The notes under the pieces: model-generated
Databases searched by the model: none
The model's input: the letters and a program-made list of their open reading frames with translations, nothing else
Told to the model about the DNA's origin: nothing
DNA from: a virus
Lineage: Duplodnaviria > Heunggongvirae > Uroviricota > Caudoviricetes
Virus record (IMG/VR): IMGVR_UViG_2802429218_000006
Span: 1 to 11,609 of that record
DNA length: 11,609 nucleotides
Reading direction: 5' to 3' (one strand)
Shown: one piece after another, positions 1,403-11,609 of the stretch
Position numbering within the stretch: position 1 is the stretch's first letter
How the letters are laid out: each line of letters starts with the position of its first letter
Translations under genes and position numbers: made by a program

Positions 1403-3058
1403 ATGATTAGTGCAAAAAACATTCTTTTCAGCAGTCGACATACTGATGCTGATGTAACTTTACATATCAATAATGTTATAAGATACCCCAAAAAATATAT
1501 GAATAATCATATCTATATATTAGATATAGACATGTATATTCAGACTGAAGACATGAAAAATCAAGCATATATAGATAATGACATTAGAAGCCCCCTGAAA
1601 ATGCTATTTATTGGAGAGGAACTAACAGAGTCAACTTTATTTGACTTATTATCCCAATCAGAAATATCGCTTCATGAAGTTAAGGTTAAATATGAATTTG
1701 ATTATATCTGTCAGATGTCAGAAGATGGATATAGATACATCAACAATAAATTAGAAACAGTCGCTTCATTATCTTTACTTAGAGCTATTAAGGATTTTGG
1801 TGTAAACTACAATATTATAAGAAACAAATCCTTTCTAAAAAAATATTCAGACAAGATATTCTCTACGTTATTACTAGATAACACTTTCAGTTCTTATGCC
1901 TTTGAAAATGGCTATAAATATTTTAATGTCGATGATGGTGCCGTTTACCAATTACAGCCCCCAACAAAATTTATTATTTATGACGAAGAAAAACAGCCGT
2001 ATAAACTTAAGATGGAGAGTCTGTTAAATATTAATATACCTATTCATGCACTAATTGGTAAGAATGGTAGCGGGAAAACCTATTTAATTAATAAAATAAT
2101 CAAACAATCTATTTCAACTGACCTAGAAATAAGATCTTCTGGCGCAGTTTTTAGTCGAATGATAGTTTTATCAAATACAATAAATGATAAGTGCTATAGA
2201 CCGGCAAATATAACCAAAAACAAATTCAAGTTAAATAACTATCATTTTGTATCGTTAACATCAGAAAAATATTATAATAAGCTTTTCCCACGAGGGAAAA
2301 AGCTAACTCTATTTTCTTTATTAGAAAAAATACAGAAACGAGATTCTAATAAGCGAGGTAACTTTGAACAGGGGGATTTGCTTGATAGAGTTACTCAAGA
2401 TATTATTCCCGAGTTTTCTTTTTCCATTAAAACAAATCTTGGGGAGCATATTTACAATAGTTTTTTAGAGTTAACTAGACAATATGGATTAGTTAATTTA
2501 AACTCAAACTTAGACTTAATTACGAGTTCAGAAATCGAATATGCATTACCTGATGAAGATATCCATTTCTATAAAAATAATGAACCCTTTACCTTAAGCT
2601 CAGGGCAATTATCTTTTTTAGTTAGCATGTTTTCTCTAATCTCAACAATAGAGAGTAATAGTCTTATACTTATAGAGGAACCAGAAAATTTTTTACACCC
2701 AAGTTTATTAACACATTTTATAAACTCACTAACACACATTCTAAGAGATACTAATTCTATCGCAATTATGGCCACCCACTCTGCTTTGGTACTTAGAGAA
2801 ATCCCTTCAGCACAAATAACAATCCTACATAGAAGAGACAATATCACCAACTATAAAACACCGAATATTGAAACATTTGGTGCCGATACTCATCAAATAA
2901 TGATAGACGTTTTTGGTGATTTATACTCTAATGCGATATTTAGAGAAGAGCTATCAAACATTGCAAAAAACAAAACAATCGATGAATTATTAGTGCAGTA
3001 TGGTGATTTACCTTCTGATGTATTAAATAAAATCATCATGGAGAAAAATTCAAAGTGA
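1403..3058 (+). CDS. ABC-type (SMC-head-like) ATPase with a ~200-aa N-terminal extension of unknown function; first gene of the candidate defence cassette
   Basis: Walker A GKNGSGKT (aa 219-226, nt 2057-2080); ABC signature LSSGQ (aa 398-402); Walker B LILIEEPENFLHP (aa 421-433, nt 2663-); H-loop ATHS (aa 457-460). Shine-Dalgarno AGGA lies 7 nt upstream of the ATG. Strongly AT-rich codon usage unlike the backbone. Confidence 0.85.
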   Translation: MISAKNILFSSRHTDADVTLHINNVIRYPKKYMNNHIYILDIDMYIQTEDMKNQAYIDNDIRSPLKMLFIGEELTESTLFDLLSQSEISLHEVKVKYEFDYICQMSEDGYRYINNKLETVASLSLLRAIKDFGVNYNIIRNKSFLKKYSDKIFSTLLLDNTFSSYAFENGYKYFNVDDGAVYQLQPPTKFIIYDEEKQPYKLKMESLLNINIPIHALIGKNGSGKTYLINKIIKQSISTDLEIRSSGAVFSRMIVLSNTINDKCYRPANITKNKFKLNNYHFVSLTSEKYYNKLFPRGKKLTLFSLLEKIQKRDSNKRGNFEQGDLLDRVTQDIIPEFSFSIKTNLGEHIYNSFLELTRQYGLVNLNSNLDLITSSEIEYALPDEDIHFYKNNEPFTLSSGQLSFLVSMFSLISTIESNSLILIEEPENFLHPSLLTHFINSLTHILRDTNSIAIMATHSALVLREIPSAQITILHRRDNITNYKTPNIETFGADTHQIMIDVFGDLYSNAIFREELSNIAKNKTIDELLVQYGDLPSDVLNKIIMEKNSK

Positions 3059-3954
3059 GAATTTTATCTAAGCCAGAGGGTATTGATGATCTACTTAATA
3101 ATATAGATCTTAACTCATCTATTGATGCCTTTTTATCGCTCGATGAACCGACTGGAATTGCTGACTTAAGAAATAAAAAAAATGATCTCTTGAACGAAAT
3201 TGAGAATTATCACACTGAGATGATTGAACGAGGTCATTTATCACATAACACGAGAAAAAACTTCTCAAAATATAAATCCATACTTGAGTGGATTTATTAT
3301 CACCCAAGTCAGCGAAGAAAAACAGACTACATAAACTCGATACGAAAACTTTACGCCCAAAGTGGAACTCTATGTCCTTACTGTGGGGTTTCTCCTTGCA
3401 GGACATTAGACCATTACTACAACAAAGCTTTATTACCACAGTTTTCATTTCTTCCTGAAAACCTTATTCCGTGCTGTGGTGATTGTAATAGAGACAAGGG
3501 AGCAAAAAAAGCCTTTAGCAAATGGAGAAGATTTGTCAATCCATTCTATGATGATTTCTCATCGTTAGAAAAAAATGAACCTCTCATATATATAATTTTC
3601 AAAGAAAGACCAAGATCTAGAATTGACATGGAATATGTAATGACAGCCAATCATAATCTAGACTTTTTAATAAGAAAACAAATAAACTATCACATTAGAA
3701 CAGTAAGAATCCCTTTCTATCATCATGAAGCCATAAGCAATTCATTTTGGAGAAACGCGAAAGACCTAATAAAGTTTAAAAAATTAGTCACTGACGGTGA
3801 TATAGATAATACAATTTATGATAAAATCATTGATGGTTTCATAGGCAAAAACAATGCTATGAATTATGACTGGGAATATATTATTAGATATTCATTAGTC
3901 AAACTTCGTATTAATCACTGGATTTATAACAGCAACCTACCAAAATTAATGTAG
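3055..3954 (+). CDS. HNH endonuclease-domain protein; second gene of the candidate defence cassette
   Basis: Zinc-finger HNH core CPYCG..LDHYY..N..CCGDCNRDKG (aa 107-148, nt 3373-3498) flanked by ~100-aa N-terminal and ~150-aa C-terminal regions of unknown function. GTG start at 3055 overlaps the TGA stop of the ATPase (GTGA), indicating translational coupling. Same AT-rich composition as the ATPase gene. Confidence 0.85.
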   Translation: MRILSKPEGIDDLLNNIDLNSSIDAFLSLDEPTGIADLRNKKNDLLNEIENYHTEMIERGHLSHNTRKNFSKYKSILEWIYYHPSQRRKTDYINSIRKLYAQSGTLCPYCGVSPCRTLDHYYNKALLPQFSFLPENLIPCCGDCNRDKGAKKAFSKWRRFVNPFYDDFSSLEKNEPLIYIIFKERPRSRIDMEYVMTANHNLDFLIRKQINYHIRTVRIPFYHHEAISNSFWRNAKDLIKFKKLVTDGDIDNTIYDKIIDGFIGKNNAMNYDWEYIIRYSLVKLRINHWIYNSNLPKLM

Positions 3955-4163: not shown

Positions 4164-4264
4164 CGCCCGCTTTGCGGGGCAGTTTTAATGCAGTTTCACT
4201 GACACGCTCAGGCCGCGCCGGGAATGGCGCGGTCTGCAGAAAATGAGGCAGGAAAACGCATGCA

Positions 4265-4297
4265 AAGCCATGCACCTTATCGATGCATGGCTTTTTT
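4265..4297 (+). terminator. Rho-independent terminator-like hairpin (10-bp perfect stem plus T6) between cos and psu
   Basis: AAGCCATGCA (4265-4274), 9-nt loop, TGCATGGCTT (4284-4293), then a T-run to 4297. The T-tail is on the plus strand, so it would stop transcripts coming from the cargo or cos side. Confidence 0.55.
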
Positions 4298-4327
4298 CAG
4301 TAAAATCGGACGGATTTTCGGGGAGTT

Positions 4328-4900
4328 TTACACAGACTGACATGATGCCAGTTGCGCACTTTTACGCGAAAAAATCATGTTCTGCGCAGGGGTGAATTTT
4401 TCACGGCTGTCATCCACCGAAGCCGCGTCAGGCCTGAATCCGATGGTCGTTAAAATGTCGCTATCCTGTGCGGAATAATTAATTTTTTCACCCTTTGCAA
4501 GCCAGGACAGAAGGGCTTCACGCAGGGCATCTGTGGCACGCTGTATGGCACAGTTTCGGGCAATGGCCGTCAGCTCACTGTAGCCCATCAGCTCCGGTGC
4601 CAGTGCCGCCGCCAGTGCTGTGCCGTGCTGCTGCATAAAATCATTCAGCCGGTCGCGGATGCTGATGTGCTGAACGGCTTCATGCGAACGAATATAACGA
4701 CCGGCGGCCTGATTCACCTGCCATTTTCTGACTTCGATAATATTGCGTAATTCGTCCAGGCGACTGACGTTTCTGCCTTCCCCGGACAGAAGCCGCAGAT
4801 ATTCCTGTTCGGCCGCAGCCAGCTCATTTTTGCGTTGCAGCCATGCTGCTTTGTTATTCTGACAGGTGTCAAAGGCCTGCTGTAAGGCTGTGCTTTCCAT
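4328..4900 (-). CDS. psu: Polarity suppression protein Psu (capsid decoration / Rho antagonist)
   Basis: 190-aa ORF, the same length as P4 Psu, in the P4 position as last gene of the sid-delta-psu operon next to cos. N-terminus MESTALQQAFDT... matches my recollection of P4 Psu. Confidence 0.85.
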   Translation of the reverse strand: MESTALQQAFDTCQNNKAAWLQRKNELAAAEQEYLRLLSGEGRNVSRLDELRNIIEVRKWQVNQAAGRYIRSHEAVQHISIRDRLNDFMQQHGTALAAALAPELMGYSELTAIARNCAIQRATDALREALLSWLAKGEKINYSAQDSDILTTIGFRPDAASVDDSREKFTPAQNMIFSRKSAQLASCQSV

Positions 4901-4973
4901 CGTTATCTCTTTCTCATCATGCTGAAGAATAAAAATACGGTGTGCGGCGACGGCCGGTGTTAACCGGCAGCCC

Positions 4974-5474
4974 TCATTCCAGACGCAGCGAATATGATTG
5001 TGTTTTTAAGCGTACTGGCGGCAGTTCCTGTTTTTCATGCAGGCTTTCTGCCAGTTCGTCCGGCGTGACCGGGCGGACAATGAAACGGTTGATGGTCTGA
5101 AGCGTTTTAAACACCAGACCACAGCCCGGATCCGTGCACACATAAAAACGCTCGGTGACTTCCTGAGACAGACGCCGCGATGTTCTTGACAGTGCAAGGC
5201 CTTTACATCTCCGACAACAATATCCGGTAACAAGCATTCTTTTCGGGCGTTTCATGCTACCGGAGGCTGACGTCAGTGAATCGCGGTATCTCTGTTTGCC
5301 TGAAATGTATTCCATTCCTGAATCTTTACAGTCAGAGAAAAAGCTTTCACTCGCTTCAAATGTCGCAGAGCAATAAATATTCCGGCACTGTGCAATCATT
5401 ATCTTGGTGCCATCGTCCATGAAATGTGCGCGACGGGTGTGAGCAACATGTCCACACGACGGGCAGTAAATCAT
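4974..5474 (-). CDS. delta: Delta, a tandem Ogr-type zinc-finger late transcription activator
   Basis: 166 aa (the P4 Delta length). The N-terminal half follows the P2 Ogr pattern (CPSCGH.AH.R..DGTK...C.N..CSATF) and a second Cys4 module sits in the C-terminal half (CCRRC...CTDPGCG). Its start overlaps the sid stop (ATGA). Confidence 0.9.
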   Translation of the reverse strand: MIYCPSCGHVAHTRRAHFMDDGTKIMIAQCRNIYCSATFEASESFFSDCKDSGMEYISGKQRYRDSLTSASGSMKRPKRMLVTGYCCRRCKGLALSRTSRRLSQEVTERFYVCTDPGCGLVFKTLQTINRFIVRPVTPDELAESLHEKQELPPVRLKTQSYSLRLE

Positions 5475-6205
5475 GACAGCAGTCCTCTGGCCTTAAGCTC
5501 TGCTCCCTGCTGGTCTATTTTGTCCTGCCACACCTTGCGCTGTGCCGGTGTGCCTGCCACCTCATAATCCATGTGCGGGAGTGTTGCCGCTGACAGTCCG
5601 GTCAGCCGGAGAACCGGCTCGCCGGTGAGGCTGATTTGCATCTGTTTAATTTTCTGTTCCAGCGATGATTTCACCTGCTGCATGACAGCCTTTTCCGGTG
5701 CGACGTAGCCCTGATGGCCGGTGGTGTTGGCGAGCGGATTTTCCTGTACCAGTATGCTCAGATGCATTGCCCGGACAAGCGCCTCACAGGTTTCATTCAG
5801 GGCGTGTTCCAGCTCATTCTCTGCATACAGACTCAGAAGGTGATGATGTGCCTTCCGGTAGGCGGTGGCCGTGCTGTCACACGCCCCTTTCAGGCGTTCA
5901 CGTTCAAAATTCAGCACCACGGCCAGATTGTCATATTCCTGTACCAGCTCCCGGCGTGCCACGCGCTCAATGTGGCGCTGTTTCAGCTCGTCGCTCAGGA
6001 CACCACCGGCTGCACGAAAGGCCGTGCGCCAGTCGTCAGCGTCGTTTCCGTCGGCCTGCGCCAGCGCATTTTTTTCCTGCTCTGCCCGTTCAATGGCCGT
6101 GACGGTCTCATCCATCAGGCGGGCGTTCTCAAGATGGGCGGCTCTGGCCTTTTCCAGTTGTGCCAGCGCGGGTTGCAGATATTCAGGGATGGTGTTGTCA
6201 GACAT
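5471..6205 (-). CDS. sid: Sid external scaffold / capsid size-determination protein
   Basis: The ATG at 6205 with a GAGGAG Shine-Dalgarno gives 244 aa, the P4 Sid length. The ORF track extends to a GTG at 6223 (250 aa), which I consider less likely. First gene of the late operon. Confidence 0.8.
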   Translation of the reverse strand: MSDNTIPEYLQPALAQLEKARAAHLENARLMDETVTAIERAEQEKNALAQADGNDADDWRTAFRAAGGVLSDELKQRHIERVARRELVQEYDNLAVVLNFERERLKGACDSTATAYRKAHHHLLSLYAENELEHALNETCEALVRAMHLSILVQENPLANTTGHQGYVAPEKAVMQQVKSSLEQKIKQMQISLTGEPVLRLTGLSAATLPHMDYEVAGTPAQRKVWQDKIDQQGAELKARGLLS

Positions 6206-6239
6206 TTTCCGGCTCCTCGTCACTTCAGGTTAAGAAAAT

Positions 6240-6295
6240 TGTGACGTACACCGGACAACAACACGACGCATTGCAGATGTGCCAGCCCTGACACA
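6240..6295. promoter_or_regulatory. Late-promoter region with two TGT-N12-ACA dyads: candidate Delta/Ogr binding sites for the divergent Psid and PLL promoters
   Basis: TGT(6240-6242)-N12-ACA(6255-6257) and TGT(6278-6280)-N12-ACA(6293-6295). The second is centred about 55 bp upstream of a plausible sid transcription start near 6230. The motif is short, so chance occurrence is possible. Confidence 0.4.
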
Positions 6296-6374
6296 GGAGA
6301 CTCATCCTCAGACCGGCAAGCCAGGAAAAGGTCGCAGGAAAAACCGGCTTACTGTTTGTTTTTTTATGTTTTAC

Positions 6375-6478
6375 TGTTCACCTCTGTTCACCATAAGAAA
6401 AAAGATAAGTAATACAGTAAGTTAAAGGGTGAGCAATCGCAGTAATGACTGTTCACCGTCTGTTCACCACTGTTCACC
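6375..6478. repeat. ori-like iteron cluster: five copies of the TGTTCACC octamer (type I iterons, alpha-binding), followed by an AT-rich stretch (6479-6570)
   Basis: TGTTCACC at 6375-6382, 6385-6392, 6450-6457, 6461-6468 and 6471-6478. The same octamer is reiterated in crr downstream of alpha, about 4.8 kb away. Confidence 0.75.
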
Positions 6479-6756
6479 CGTTCATGGACTTTTTGTGCTG
6501 TGTATTACTTTTTATTTTTATTAATTAACTGAAATAAATAAGAAAAAACAATTTGTATTTCACTATAATTTTTTCCAGCTCCTTCCAGAGCGTTTTAAAG
6601 CTATCTGGCGCTGATGTGCAAAAAACACACAGCAATTGTAAGGCTGCCGGAACAAATCCCCCCTGTTGCGTCTGCTGAAAATATTCACAAAATAAAGCGC
6701 TACCCGAAGCCGGACGGACTTATCCGGTGCTGTATGGACATTAACGAGGTAGCCCG

Positions 6757-7023
6757 ATGCAAGCTGTTTTTTCTTCCCCGTCTCCTGCCCCTGTGACGCC
6801 ACTGATGCCGCTGCCGGACATCACGCAGGAGCGTTTTTTACGTCTGCCGGAAGTGATGCACCTGTGCGGCCTGTCACGCTCGACCATCTACGAACTCATC
6901 CGTAAGGGGGAATTTCCGCCGCAGGTGAGTCTTGGCGGTAAAAATGTGGCCTGGCTGCACTCTGAAGTCACCGCATGGATGGCCGGGCGCATTGCCGGAC
7001 GCAAACGGGGGTACGACGCATGA
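6757..7023 (+). CDS. vis: Vis / AlpA-family helix-turn-helix regulator (excision and late-gene control)
   Basis: 88 aa (the size of P4 orf88/vis) with an AlpA-like HTH segment ([28 protein letters not shown]). GAGG Shine-Dalgarno 8 nt upstream. First gene of the plus-strand left operon. Confidence 0.75.
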
Positions 7024-7574
7024 TGATGCCTGTTCTGCAAAAACTCCCTTTTTCTGGCTTGCCTTTTTCCGGCATTTGCGGATATAGTTTTTCCGCTGTC
7101 GCAAAATCGGCAGCCGGGCGTAGGAACCCGAGTTACTTCAAGGCGACATATGACGCGCCATGCGTCTTTTTTTACGTCGTTGCTTCGGCACACCTGTTTT
7201 TCTGGCTGTGGTTTTTAAACCGTAGCCTCTGTCAGATAATGGTGGTCCGGGCGGGGCAGCCTTCGGGCTGGCCGGTTTCCTTGAAGGCCGGTATTCCTAC
7301 CCCCGTCCGGGCTACCACCCATGAGCGTAGGAACTCCAGTGGTAGCTGTAACTGTTACTTCAAGGAGGCTGCCATCATGGCTACAACCCTTACCCCCTCA
7401 CACCCTGAATTTGTCTTTGTGTTTGCGGCTGTCCGTCGCGCAGACCGTCATCCCCGTATCTGCATGCTTCGCACCGTCGCCGGTGATGAACGCAGCGCCC
7501 GCCGTTCCCTTGTCCGTGACTATGTGCTCTCCCTTGCTGCCCGTCTGCCGGTGGTGGAGGTGTCCCGTGCGTAA
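6975..7574 (+). CDS. Possible eta-like ORF (199 codons) that reads through the immunity-RNA region, with the kil-like ORF nested in the same frame
   Basis: A 600-nt open frame starting inside vis, upstream of the PLE-like promoter, and spanning the structured RNA region. Consistent with the nested kil/eta arrangement described for P4, but the protein is low-complexity and could be an artefact of GC-rich sequence. Confidence 0.3.
7059..7088 (+). promoter_or_regulatory. Candidate sigma-70 promoter (PLE-like) driving the immunity / left operon
   Basis: TTGCCT (7059-7064), 18-bp spacer, TATAGT (7083-7088), about 30 bp upstream of seqA. Confidence 0.45.
7118..7143 (+). promoter_or_regulatory. seqA-like target site for the immunity RNA
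   Basis: GCGTAGGAAC..TTACTTCAAGG. The two blocks are complementary to CCTTGAAG (7279-7286) and TTCCTAC (7294-7300) inside the structured RNA. Confidence 0.55.
7241..7320 (+). ncRNA. cI: CI-like immunity RNA (P4-type antisense RNA carrying seqB); boundaries approximate
   Basis: Highly structured segment: GGTGGTCCGGGCGGGG pairs with CCCCGTCCGGGCTACCACC (one G-T wobble and a 3-nt bulge), plus an internal CAGCC-TTCG-GGCTG hairpin. The internal seqB blocks are complementary to both flanking seqA and seqC. Confidence 0.5.
7325..7365 (+). promoter_or_regulatory. seqC-like target site overlapping the ribosome-binding site of the kil-like ORF
   Basis: GCGTAGGAAC (7325-7334) and TTACTTCAAGG (7355-7365) repeat the two seqA blocks. 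The second block runs straight into the AGGAGG Shine-Dalgarno of the ORF starting at 7377. Confidence 0.55.
7377..7574 (+). CDS. Small kil-like protein (65 aa); resembles the Ash/Icd-like small proteins of P4-type prophages
   Basis: Strong AGGAGG Shine-Dalgarno 8 nt upstream of the ATG. First ORF after the immunity RNA. Sequence [25 protein letters not shown]... Confidence 0.55.
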
Positions 7575-7854
7575 TAAAAAAGCCCCTCAGACCGTCTCAG
7601 CGCGTCATGACGCCCGTGAACACCTCAGCATTGAGGCTTACCATAAGCTCAACCGCGCCAGCGCCGTATCCCAGTTTGTTGGGGGTGATTTGATTCACCG
7701 TGAACTCTCCGGCCTGCATCAGCTCTACATTCCGCATATTTTCAGTTACCTGAATGAAGATATTGATTTTGTGCTGAATGAACTGAAAGCCAAAGGCCTG
7801 TGCCGCGATTTTCTCGCCCAGCAGAAAGACCGGGGAGACAGGACGCATGTTTGA
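7567..7854 (+). CDS. Epsilon-sized small protein (95 aa) with a GTG start; position and size match P4 epsilon, the derepression protein
   Basis: No in-frame ATG exists. The GTG at 7567 is preceded by GGAGG at 6-nt spacing and overlaps the stop of the kil-like ORF. Product length is exactly 95 aa. Identification is by synteny and size only. Confidence 0.45.
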
Positions 7855-8308
7855 TTTTCCCCAGCCCGGTGAGATTTACCGTTCTGCCGGTTTTCCCGAT
7901 GTGGCCGTGGTCGGCATTCTGGAAGACGGTATTCCGTGGGAAATGCCGTACCGCTGCCCGGACATTGTCTGGAACCCGTACCGCCGTAAATTCAGTATCC
8001 TTGTGCGTATCCTCGCTGACGGGCGCACCACAGACATCCCGCTGGGGCGTTTTCTGCGGGAATTTACCTGTGACCGTCCTGACCTGTTCAAACGCAGCCC
8101 CGTAAACCGGCATGCGGTACTGAAAGAAATGGCCGGAGACCCGGAATTACAGAAATGGCGGGAGAAATATCTGGATATTTACCCGCAGGACCCTGTTCCG
8201 GTCAGCCGGGCGGCACCGGTGGCGCGGGAATGGCGGGAAATTCCCCGCACGGAGCCTGACCCGGCCCCCCCCCCCCGGATAACAGTTACCGCAATTATCT
8301 GTAATTAA
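7847..8308 (+). CDS. Hypothetical protein, orf151-like by position (153 aa); contains a C12 homopolymer near its 3' end
   Basis: ATG overlaps the stop of the preceding ORF (ATGTTTGA). The C12 run at 8265-8276 encodes the PAPPP segment of the product. Confidence 0.6.
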
Positions 8309-8439
8309 AAAACGACACCCGAAAAATTAAATGTGCGTATTCGCGCAGGGATACGCACGTCTTCAGGAGACGCAGATATGTCTTATCAGTTAATGCAACC
8401 GGCACGGAATGCAGTCATCTGTCACAGGGAGGAAAGCAA

Positions 8440-8760
8440 ATGAAAACACCCTTACCGCCCGTCTTACGCGCTGCCCTTTACCGTCGCGCTGTCGCCTGTG
8501 CCTGGCTGACCGTGTGCGAACGTCAGCACCGCTACCCGCATCTCACCCTTGAGTCACTGGAGGCGGCCATCGCCGCTGAGCTGGAAGGCTTTTATCTGCG
8601 CCAGCACGGTGAGGAAAAAGGGCGCCAGATAGCCTGTGCCCTGCTGGAAGATTTAATGGAATCCGGCCCCCTGAAGGCCGCGCCGTCGCTGTCCTTTCTC
8701 GGGCTGGTTGTGATGGATGAACTCTGTGCCCGTCACATAAAAGCGCCGGTACTGCACTGA
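8440..8760 (+). CDS. cnr: cnr-sized protein (106 aa); copy-number-control candidate
   Basis: GGGAGG Shine-Dalgarno. 106 aa equals P4 cnr (orf106), and it lies immediately upstream of alpha as in P4. Identification is by synteny and size only. Confidence 0.5.
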
Positions 8761-8774
8761 AGGAGAACAACACC

Positions 8775-11108
8775 ATGAAAATGAACGTAACCGCCACCGT
8801 CAGCCATGCGCTCGGCCACTGGCCGCGTATTCTCCCGGCGCTGGGGATTCAGGTGCTGAAAAACCGTCATCAGCCCTGTCCGGTCTGTGGCGGGAGTGAC
8901 CGCTTCCGTTTTGATGACAGGGAGGGGCGCGGCACCTGGTACTGCAATCAGTGTGGTGCCGGTGACGGCCTGAAACTGGTTGAAAAGGTGTTTGGTGTTT
9001 CCCCGTCCGACGCGGCCGCAAAGGTGGCTGCCGTGACCGGCAGTCTGCCACCGGCTGACCCGGCAGTGACGGCTGCCGCCGGTGCTGAAACAGACGCTGC
9101 CCGGAAGAACGCCGCCGCACTGGCACAAACCCTGATGGCGAAAACCTGTCCCGGAACCGGTAACGCCTACCTGACCCGCAAGGGCTTTCCCGGCCGGGAA
9201 TGCCGGATGCTGACCGGCACACACAGAGCCGGTGGCGTGAGCTGGCGCGCCGGTGACCTTGTGGTGCCACTGTATGACGACAGCGGCGAACTGGTTAACC
9301 TTCAGTTAATCAGTGCTGACGGCCGTAAGCGCACCCTGAAAGGCGGACAGGTCAGGGGCACCTGTCACACCTTTGAAGGACAGAATCAGGCCGGAAAACG
9401 TCTGTGGATAGCGGAGGGATACGCGACCGCACTTACCGTGCATCACCTGACCGGTGAAACGGTGATGGTGGCGCTTTCTTCCGTGAATCTCCTTTCTCTG
9501 GCCAGCCTTGCCCGGCAGAAGCATCCGGCCTGTCAGATTGTCCTTGCCGCAGACCGTGACCTCAGCGGTGACGGCCAGAAAAAAGCCGCCGCAGCCGCAG
9601 ATGCGTGTGAAGGTGTTGTTGCCCTGCCGCCGGTCTTCGGTGACTGGAATGATGCCTTCACGCAGTACGGCGGGGAAGCCACCCGTAAGGCCATTTATGA
9701 TGCCATCCGGCCACCGGCTGAAAGCCCGTTCGACACCATGAGCGAAGCGGAGTTTTCCGCCATGAGTACCAGCGAAAAGGCCATGCGTATCTATGAGCAT
9801 TACGGCGAGGCGCTCGCGGTCGATGCCAACGGCCAGCTTCTGTCCCGTTATGAAAATGGTGTCTGGAAGGTGCTGCCACCACAGGACTTTGCCCGGGATG
9901 TGGCCGGGCTGTTTCAGCGGCTGCGTGCGCCGTTCTCCTCCGGGAAGGTGGCCTCCGTGGTGGACACCCTGAAGCTGATTATTCCGCAGCAGGAAGCCCC
10001 CTCCCGCCGCCTGATTGGCTTTCGTAACGGCGTGCTCGACACGCAGAACGGCACGTTCCACCCGCACAGTCCGTCACACTGGATGCGCACCCTGTGCGAT
10101 GTGGATTTCACCCCGCCGGTGGAAGGGGAAACGCTGGAAACCCACGCCCCCGCGTTCTGGCGCTGGCTTGACCGTGCCGCCGGTGGCCGTGCGGAAAAAC
10201 GCGACGTGATTCTGGCCGCACTGTTTATGGTGCTGGCAAACCGCTACGACTGGCAGCTCTTTCTGGAGGTGACCGGTCCCGGCGGCAGCGGCAAAAGTAT
10301 CATGGCCGAAATAGCCACCCTGCTGGCCGGGGAGGATAACGCCACGTCGGCCACCATCGAGACGCTGGAATCCCCGCGTGAACGTGCCGCGTTAACTGGC
10401 TTCTCACTGATACGCCTGCCGGACCAGGAAAAATGGAGCGGCGACGGTGCCGGACTCAAGGCCATCACCGGCGGCGATGCGGTGTCCGTTGACCCGAAAT
10501 ACCGGGATGCATACTCCACGCATATCCCGGCGGTAATTCTGGCCGTGAACAATAACCCGATGCGCTTCACCGACCGCAGCGGCGGCGTGTCACGCCGGCG
10601 GGTGATTATTCACTTCCCGGAACAGATAGCCCCGCAGGAGCGCGACCCGCAGCTTAAGGACAAAATCACCCGCGAGCTGGCGGTCATCGTGCGTCACCTG
10701 ATGCAGAAGTTCAGCGACCCGATGCTCGCCCGGTCACTGCTTCAGTCCCAGCAGAACTCAGACGAGGCACTGAACATCAAACGGGATGCCGACCCGACGT
10801 TTGATTTTATCGGCTATCTGGAAACCCTGCCGCAGACCAGCGGCATGTATATGGGGAACGCCAGTATCATCCCGCGTAATTACCGTAAATACCTCTATCA
10901 CGCCTATCTGGCCTACATGGAGGCAAACGGCTACCGGAATGTACTCAGTCTGAAAATGTTCGGGCTGGGGCTGCCGGTGATGCTGAAGGAATACGGACTG
11001 AATTACGAGAAGCGCCATACCAAACAGGGGATACAGACCAACCTGACGCTGAAAGAGGAAAGCTACGGCGACTGGCTGCCAAAATGTGACGACCCTGCAA
11101 CAACCTGA
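8775..11108 (+). CDS. alpha: Alpha primase-helicase replication protein
   Basis: 777 aa (the P4 alpha length). N-terminal zinc-ribbon primase motif CPVCGGSDRFRFDD..WYCNQCG, a TOPRIM-like region, and a C-terminal helicase Walker A GPGGSGKS. AGGAG Shine-Dalgarno upstream. Confidence 0.92.
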   Translation: MKMNVTATVSHALGHWPRILPALGIQVLKNRHQPCPVCGGSDRFRFDDREGRGTWYCNQCGAGDGLKLVEKVFGVSPSDAAAKVAAVTGSLPPADPAVTAAAGAETDAARKNAAALAQTLMAKTCPGTGNAYLTRKGFPGRECRMLTGTHRAGGVSWRAGDLVVPLYDDSGELVNLQLISADGRKRTLKGGQVRGTCHTFEGQNQAGKRLWIAEGYATALTVHHLTGETVMVALSSVNLLSLASLARQKHPACQIVLAADRDLSGDGQKKAAAAADACEGVVALPPVFGDWNDAFTQYGGEATRKAIYDAIRPPAESPFDTMSEAEFSAMSTSEKAMRIYEHYGEALAVDANGQLLSRYENGVWKVLPPQDFARDVAGLFQRLRAPFSSGKVASVVDTLKLIIPQQEAPSRRLIGFRNGVLDTQNGTFHPHSPSHWMRTLCDVDFTPPVEGETLETHAPAFWRWLDRAAGGRAEKRDVILAALFMVLANRYDWQLFLEVTGPGGSGKSIMAEIATLLAGEDNATSATIETLESPRERAALTGFSLIRLPDQEKWSGDGAGLKAITGGDAVSVDPKYRDAYSTHIPAVILAVNNNPMRFTDRSGGVSRRRVIIHFPEQIAPQERDPQLKDKITRELAVIVRHLMQKFSDPMLARSLLQSQQNSDEALNIKRDADPTFDFIGYLETLPQTSGMYMGNASIIPRNYRKYLYHAYLAYMEANGYRNVLSLKMFGLGLPVMLKEYGLNYEKRHTKQGIQTNLTLKEESYGDWLPKCDDPATT

Positions 11109-11124
11109 CCATCATGACTCATCT

Positions 11125-11149
11125 GACCGGCATCTGCCGGTCTTTTTTT
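11125..11149 (+). terminator. Rho-independent terminator downstream of alpha
   Basis: GACCGGC (11125-11131), loop ATCT, GCCGGTC (11136-11142), then T7 (11143-11149): a perfect 7-bp stem. Confidence 0.8.
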
Positions 11150-11166
11150 ATCCCTGAATTCCCCGA

Positions 11167-11468
11167 AGGTGAACAATCCACTGTTCACCCTTCACCGTAT
11201 ATTCACTCGTTATCACACTGAAATTAAAAGAGAAAAACGAAAGGTGAACAGTGTGAACAATCAAATCAAAAAAAACTTTTTTTCTCCCTGTGTGATTTCA
11301 GTACGGGGGATTAATCACCGGTATGAGTCACACCGGCAGAATGCCGGAGGTGAAGAATCGAATGTTCACCCTTCACCCATTATTCACTACCTATCATACT
11401 GAAATAAAAGGAGAAAAAAGAAAGGTGAACAGTGTGAACAGTTCTTTCGAAAAAAAATTTTTTTCCTG
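11167..11468. repeat. crr (cis replication region): two ~121-bp direct repeats (11167-11287 and 11348-11468, period 181 bp), each carrying TGTTCACC / GGTGAACA iterons and ending in an A8/T8 tract
   Basis: The repeats align along their whole length with a few substitutions. Iterons at 11168-11175, 11182-11189 and 11243-11250, plus the equivalent positions in the second copy. Confidence 0.8.
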
Positions 11469-11516
11469 AGTTAACGTGCGTGAAGATACGTGTAAAAATT
11501 AATCGATAGATATTAT

Positions 11517-11536
11517 ATGTATAAGGATGTGTATAA
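11517..11536. promoter_or_regulatory. Candidate integrase arm-type binding sites (ATGTATAA / ATGTGTATAA) on the attR side
   Basis: Same tandem motif pair as at 124-143 on the attL/int side. Confidence 0.4.
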
Positions 11537-11593
11537 ATGAATTATAATAGAAAAATATAAACGATTTGAATCAAATGGTTATATGGCAATTTT

Positions 11594-11609
11594 GACTCCT
11601 GTGATCTTC
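11594..11609. repeat. attR core: direct repeat of the selC 3' end (GACTCCTGTGATCTTC, truncated by the window edge)
   Basis: Matches the selC segment immediately 5' of the bases at window positions 1-12. The T at 11593 where selC has C marks the edge of identity. Confidence 0.6.

Follow-up and report, generated by a model that had tools for sequence, protein, structure and literature searches.

The stretch of DNA analyzed here (the window, 11,609 bp) opens with the last bases of a tRNA-Sec gene, GATCTTCCGCCA, and closes with a partial copy of them, GACTCCTGTGATCTTC; the two att cores lie at 1-12 and 11590-11609, with the tRNA-Sec 3' end GATCTTC at both. A tRNA scan of the window found none because it contains no more of tRNA-Sec than the final 12 nt. 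The whole window is ~98% identical to E. coli chromosomes, where it adjoins tRNA-Sec between yicJ and setC, and positions 4164-11463 are 97.3% identical to phage P4 (X51522, NC_001609). With the tRNA-Sec end present on both sides, we read the window, on its sequence, as a complete integrated P4-like satellite prophage that extends from att core to att core. Its genes, in order, are:

175-1362: int, whose product is 39% identical to P4 Int
1403-3954: two cargo genes, followed by the cos region
after the cos region and before ori, minus strand: psu, delta, sid
6757-7023: vis, after ori and followed by the immunity region
after the immunity region: epsilon, orf151 and cnr, then alpha, terminator, crr and att
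8440-8760, plus strand: cnr (orf106), copy-number regulator, 100% identical to P4 ORF106, Pfam DUF5375
8775-11108, plus strand: alpha, with a zinc-ribbon and Toprim primase, a D5_N/SF3 helicase and a C-terminal winged-helix origin-binding domain

The order sid - ori - vis ... cnr - alpha - crr - att preserves the synteny of P4. The cargo occupies the P4 variable region, where it replaces the P4 gop-beta-cII genes, and encodes a 551-aa AAA_21/AAA_15 ATPase and a 299-aa protein annotated in RefSeq as an HNH endonuclease; its best hits in PADLOC are to PDC-M01A and PDC-M01B, followed by PtuA (Septu). The delta gene (4974-5474) specifies 166 aa, as in P4; in the E. coli element most closely related to the window, an Ogr/Delta-type gene of 81 aa is found (L004 7415-7660). 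In the immunity region, Rfam matches isrK at 7095-7172 (70.5 bits) and, at 7235-7322 (86.1 bits), the C4 antisense RNA, the counterpart of the P4 CI immunity RNA. The immunity leader of the window reads CTTCAAGG vs TTCACAGG in P4, and the CI RNA loop CCTTGAAG vs CCTGTGAA; these changes compensate mutually and, together with the replacement of the spacer at 7174-7232 relative to P4, suggest that the element may have another immunity specificity.

The octamer TGTTCACC occurs ten times in the window by exact matching on both strands. Dinucleotide-preserving shuffles of the window contained 0.45 copies on average and at most 4, and 0/200 reached ten. The copies at 6375, 6385, 6450, 6461 and 6471 are all direct, exactly as a preliminary description of this DNA had proposed for 6375-6478, and the remaining five, at 11168 (minus), 11182 (plus), 11243 (minus), 11363 (plus) and 11424 (minus), lie past alpha. 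The whole-window count suggested in that description places 10/10 exact copies at one of these two sites and none elsewhere on either strand, which upholds the claim that the octamer is restricted to two loci; a similar density elsewhere in the window was not seen. Allowing up to one mismatch gave 20 matches against 8.7 expected; four of the ten beyond the exact set fall within the two sites (6428, minus, TGCTCACC; 11252, 11349 and 11433, all minus), the other six are dispersed over the window, and the surplus consists of the matches in ori and crr. The clusters are 4.69-4.79 kb apart, close to the 4.8 kb first estimated. That they flank alpha is true of the distal one, which begins 55 bp 3' of the alpha stop codon; the proximal one is separated from the alpha start, 2.3-2.4 kb further downstream, by vis, the immunity region, epsilon, orf151 and cnr. 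The proximal cluster is organized as follows:

6369-6484, plus strand: ori1 core, six type 1 iterons and an internal A-rich spacer, homologue of the block annotated 'ori type 1 repeat' in P4
6375-6382, plus strand: ori iteron 1, TGTTCACC, exact match, annotated in P4
6385-6392, plus strand: ori iteron 2, TGTTCACC, 10 bp from iteron 1
6393-6427: A-rich spacer, 35 bp, 7/35 G+C (20% GC), candidate unwinding and priming region
6428-6435, minus strand: ori iteron 3, an inverted copy with one substitution, TGCTCACC; it reads GGTGAGCA on the plus strand, and GGTGAACA in P4
6450-6457, plus strand: ori iteron 4, TGTTCACC, exact match
6461-6468, plus strand: ori iteron 5, TGTTCACC, 11 bp from iteron 4
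6471-6478, plus strand: ori iteron 6, TGTTCACC, 10 bp from iteron 5
6490-6579: AT-rich flank to the right of the iterons, GC 0.17-0.18

The repeat unit here is (A/T)CTGTTCACC, with start-to-start distances of 10, 65, 11 and 10 bp between the exact copies. All six iterons of a P4-type origin are present: five are exact, direct and phased by 10/11/10 bp, near one turn of the helix, and the sixth, inverted and carrying one substitution, sits in the homologous place. The initial tally of five direct copies was thus right as far as it went and overlooked the mutated inverted one; the AT-rich DNA that it placed beside the cluster is found both inside the iteron block (6393-6427) and to its right (6490-6579). 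In a pairwise alignment the region is 95% identical to P4 by column. The A-rich spacer is conserved in sequence as well as in composition, AATACAGTAA having positions that are invariant across genera down to 57% alpha identity, and such conservation may reflect a defined site, used in unwinding, in priming or by a host factor. The distal cluster comprises:

11125-11149, plus strand: alpha terminator, a hairpin and T-run homologous to P4 'talpha'
11163-11284, plus strand: crr direct repeat A, 122 nt, annotated in P4
iterons in repeat A: 11168 (minus), 11182 (plus), 11200 (plus, TATTCACT, two mismatches), 11243 (minus), 11252 (minus, TGTTCACA)
11344-11465, plus strand: crr direct repeat B, 122 nt
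iterons in repeat B: 11349 (minus, TCTTCACC), 11363 (plus), 11381 (plus, TATTCACT), 11424 (minus), 11433 (minus, TGTTCACA)

Both orientations are represented, as first described, and the extent needs adjustment from one span of 11167-11468 with 121-bp repeats to two repeats of 122 nt at the positions above. The repeats are 83% identical to each other, start 181 nt apart and have the makeup expected of crr: two direct repeats of ~120 bp with ~60 bp between them, directly past alpha, with iterons in both orientations. Across the shared part they align with P4 crr at ~97% identity. The third, weak iteron differs from that of P4 by a C-to-T change at 11207 and at 11388 (TATTCACC to TATTCACT in both repeats), a parallel change that suggests possible gene conversion between the repeats. 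Between the alpha stop and the terminator hairpin, the window has a 9-bp insertion relative to P4 (11109-11117).

The homologous octamers are annotated singly in the P4 records X51522 and NC_001609 as 'ori type 1 repeat', six of them in the 'origin of DNA replication' and five per 'crr 120bp direct repeat' within the 'crr (cis required region for replication)'. Every annotated P4 type 1 repeat is present in the window, the differences being one base each in the inverted ori copy and in the third copy of each crr repeat; the earlier identification of the iterons with a P4-type ori and crr is borne out by these homologous positions. Its other half, a matching primase-helicase, holds as well. The alpha protein is 768/776 identical (99%) to P4 alpha, its Pfam domains are zinc-ribbon, Toprim, D5_N, SF3-type and Pox_D5 C-terminal, and residues 671-770 are identical (100%) to PDB 1KA8, the crystallized P4 origin-binding domain. 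The same domain order is described in PMC2777425, and P4 alpha binds the P4 origin repeats via its winged-helix domain, then unwinds and primes (PMC4234260). The cnr gene lies upstream of alpha, as it does in P4, and its product is 100% identical to that of P4. We consider it very probable, from this homology, that the two octamer clusters form the bipartite origin (ori1 + crr) of a P4-type satellite phage.

Several earlier studies concern the origin of P4 itself. Flensburg and Calendar are said to have defined crr in 1987, and Ziegelin et al. reportedly showed in 1993 that alpha binds the type I iterons in both ori and crr. Tocchetti et al. are reported to have narrowed ori1 in 1999 to ~123 bp, which hold six iterons along with an AT-rich region of 35 bp, reportedly found that deletion of any type 1 iteron, or insertions that shift the phase, inactivates ori1, and are said to have located a second, iteron-free origin, ori2, within alpha. 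Cnr (orf106), which we take to be a copy-number regulator acting on alpha, increases the DNA affinity of alpha and inhibits replication.

The arrangement extends well beyond E. coli. A scan for alpha, with one genome per species, yielded 80 loci, spread over many genera of the Enterobacterales, in which alpha is 57-99% identical, and an nhmmer profile search with the window ori found an ori homologue in 57 further loci of other genera. The whole of the resulting 58-sequence alignment follows one layout, in which a pair of direct iterons precedes a ~35-bp A-rich spacer, several of whose positions are invariant, and a single inverted iteron and a further three direct ones come after it. Column counts give a family iteron core T-N-TTCAC-Y, in which the second base drifts between G, C and A while TTCAC is kept in 54-58/58 sequences at every ori copy; because of this drift, exact-octamer counts underestimate conservation in distant relatives, and they were replaced by the profile search and alignment. 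Among the loci with alpha at least 78% identical, 20/29 have the core TGTTCAC at least three times at both the upstream and the post-alpha site (the former 1.7-2.6 kb ahead of alpha, the latter no more than 480 bp past it), against a background of 0.18 per kb elsewhere. A crr homologue was detected ~50 bp past the alpha stop in 46/79 loci, and those in which none was detectable mostly have alpha below 70% identity. In several relatives (L030, L031, L034, L036, L055, L056) one crr copy lies ~50 bp past alpha and more lie 1.3-2.3 kb downstream; this spread suggests that DNA may have been inserted between the crr repeats, possibly making this a second cargo site. The family core T-N-TTCAC-Y and the conserved spacer could guide the annotation of origins in other P4-like elements.

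This breadth bears directly on what else the octamers might be. The two crr repeats are themselves a duplication, which alone doubles the count at that site, and one could therefore suspect a chance or duplication artifact devoid of function; yet the ori copies belong to no long duplication, ten copies were never reached in the shuffles, and the layout and the TTCAC core persist even in loci whose alpha is 57% identical, where the bases around the core have changed. We regard the artifact as refuted by this conservation across relatives, its probability being close to nil; conservation across genera is incompatible with chance and speaks for an interface between protein and DNA that has been preserved. 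Just as improbable is a role of the crr repeats as recombination sites, the arm sites of an integrase or excisionase, a reading that arises because crr adjoins the attachment site, its end being 145 bp from the att core at the right end of the window. Int shares just 39% identity with its P4 counterpart and the element uses tRNA-Sec, not tRNA-Leu, and yet its crr is ~97% identical to that of P4; the annotated attP arm repeats of P4 fall outside crr; and the same octamer recurs at ori, 4.7 kb away. On these grounds we rejected crr as a set of arm sites. A separate repeat, ATGTGTATA / ATATGTATA, is common to both att-proximal arms (123-143 and 11515-11535), also outside crr, and provides candidate Int arm sites. 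It is easier, though still very hard, to imagine crr mainly as a negative copy-number element that titrates or handcuffs alpha, in the manner of the extra iteron arrays of P1, F and R6K, instead of a positive part of the origin. Plasmid control loci are laid out in this way, with a second set of iterons several kb from the origin, and Cnr, a negative regulator acting via alpha, is encoded beside alpha; but the P4 records call crr a 'cis required region for replication', that is, a positive requirement, crr directly follows alpha in most relatives, and the two roles could coexist.

A more serious reservation concerns this particular copy of ori1. Among the aligned homologues, position 6433, in the near-invariant core of the inverted iteron, is G solely in the window, A in 56/58 and T in 1. 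A 41-nt probe centered on 6433 found the G allele in 4 of 5426 complete E. coli genomes and the P4 allele in 825. Given so rare a base at a near-invariant position, G6433 may weaken ori1 firing in this copy. The origin could then be P4-type by descent but crippled, so that the element would replicate poorly after induction or depend on ori2, reported to lie inside the P4 alpha gene and to lack iterons. In favor of this view, besides the uniqueness and rarity of the allele, one carrier (NZ_CP134353), a tRNA-Leu P4 with gop/beta, has a frameshifted alpha, and Tocchetti et al. (1999) reportedly found that deletion of any type 1 iteron inactivates oriI. We nonetheless think it unlikely: the P4 core genes of the window, alpha and cnr among them, are all intact, as are five iterons and the entire crr; a single substitution is milder than a deletion; and the allele persists in several unrelated strains. 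The bipartite P4-type origin remains our preferred reading, and no observation speaks against that assignment as such.

The surroundings of ori required a revision of the initial picture, in which the iterons were placed between the late promoters and vis. The late promoters of P2 and P4 carry an Ogr/delta dyad, TGT-N12-ACA, centered near -55. This motif shows no significant enrichment (5 vs 2.5 expected), and in the sid-vis interval it occurs only at 6240-6257, 6278-6295 and 6637-6654. A late promoter site at 6240-6257 was discarded, as its start would fall inside sid. The features of interest are:

6278-6295: TGT-N12-ACA dyad, candidate Ogr/delta site of Psid (leftward), identical in P4
6637-6654: TGT-N12-ACA dyad, candidate Ogr/delta site of PLL (rightward), dyad kept in P4 with a different N12
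6570-6620: patch replacing the three P4 'ori type 2 repeats' (P2 Cox boxes), outside the iteron system

Under the -55 rule, leftward transcription from the 6278-6295 dyad would begin near 6231, leaving 26 nt to the sid ATG at 6205; for the 6637-6654 dyad the predicted start is rightward, near 6700 and 56 nt before vis. A sigma-70 scan of 6150-7100 returned nothing for Psid or PLL, as expected because late promoters are activator-dependent, and only a PLE-like site at 7059-7088. Ori (6369-6484) would thus lie between the divergent late promoters, with the putative Psid dyad on its left and the PLL dyad on its right, and vis (6757-7023) downstream of PLL; the position first given for it has to be abandoned. 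The companion suggestion, of a control region common to replication and late transcription, survives in a positional sense only, in that both map to the same 550-bp intergenic region. In a weaker form of this idea, alpha sitting on ori might influence the late promoters to either side.

Between ori and PLL, the P4 'ori type 2 repeats' (CTTTAAGTGG and variants; L001 2417-2449) coincide, on the other strand, with three Cox boxes phased by 10 bp (P2 consensus used, TTAAA(G/C)NCA). Binding of Cox upstream of PLL has been reported, and the overlap between type 2 repeats and Cox boxes in P4 agrees with it. The window lacks a phased Cox-box array between ori and PLL, the search there giving a single box with one mismatch, on the other strand, at 6595-6603. 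Its patch, whose sequence is unrelated to that of P4, instead contains TTCCAG at 6573 and 6583, 10 bp apart, and an inverted CCAG at 6605-6608. Both alleles of the patch are common in E. coli (373 vs 439 of 5426 genomes). The P4 record puts the type 2 repeats inside rep_origin, whereas the window's origin is without them; judged by sequence, these repeats are probably sites for a helper signal rather than for replication, and the 6570-6620 patch may be an exchangeable helper-sensing module. One could go further and regard the control region of the window as a naturally occurring variant of that of P4, in which G6433 and the swapped Cox-box array would alter both ori1 firing and the helper signal and a modular cassette would separate the origin from PLL. 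We consider this unlikely; if both changes matter, ori1 would fire differently and the element would answer a helper signal other than P2 Cox.

We posit that replication of this element would follow the P4 scheme. Its alpha would bind the iterons at ori (two direct, a 35-bp A-rich spacer, one inverted and three direct, phased by 10-11 bp) and at crr (a direct repeat of 122 bp, present twice, in which iterons of either orientation surround an A-rich center) via the C-terminal winged-helix domain; the SF3 helicase domain would open the A-rich DNA, and the Toprim primase domain would lay primers, so that theta-type replication begins at ori. According to the P4 literature and records, crr would be required in cis, and Cnr (orf106) would, as the P4 literature has it, restrain replication through alpha.

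The ori/crr system found here is the one already described for P4 and annotated in the P4 genome record, and its assignment is not new; as the re-identification of a textbook P4 origin in a P4-like prophage, it matters little in itself. Along with the att cores at both ends, it marks the window as a complete and apparently replication-competent satellite, which is useful for annotation. The mildly new items are limited to the departures from P4, namely the iteron mutation and the Cox-box patch. Taken with the compensating change in the immunity RNA, the mutated iteron and the dimorphic patch could be of use in studying how P4-like satellites diversify their helper sensing and immunity around a fixed alpha/iteron replicon.

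The closest known system is P4 ori/crr itself (X51522 / NC_001609; X05623; 1KA8), which has the same octamer and the same iteron number, order, orientation and spacing at both sites. Ori is placed between sid and vis in both elements, and in both, the alpha terminator is directly followed by a crr made of two ~120-bp repeats separated by 60 bp. Within this framework, the window has GGTGAGCA as its inverted ori iteron where P4 has GGTGAACA, and in both crr repeats its third iteron reads TATTCACT where that of P4 reads TATTCACC; outside the replicon, the integrase, att site (tRNA-Leu in P4, tRNA-Sec here), cargo and immunity RNA all differ. Other P4-like satellites, in Enterobacter, Citrobacter, Klebsiella, Kluyvera, Raoultella, Pantoea, Serratia, Pectobacterium and others, have the same six-iteron ori, A-rich spacer and crr ~50 bp after alpha, with 1.7-2.6 kb from ori to alpha; the second base of their iterons varies (TCCTTCACC in Pantoea, ACTATTCAC elsewhere), and some have a single crr copy or extra DNA between the copies.

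Iteron-bearing theta plasmids (pSC101, P1, F, R6K, RK2) offer a more distant parallel. Like the window, they combine direct, helically phased initiator sites beside AT-rich DNA with a second, distal cluster. Their iterons, in contrast, measure 17-22 bp, against a repeat unit of 8-10 bp here, and their initiator is a Rep_3/RepA protein, whereas that of the window is a primase-helicase fusion. No DnaA box (TTWTNCACA) was found in the iteron block at 6369-6484, and with the short repeats and the primase-helicase initiator this led us to set aside a plasmid-type Rep/DnaA origin. The distal cluster of P4 is a positive cis requirement, and P4 is reported to replicate independently of DnaA and DnaG.
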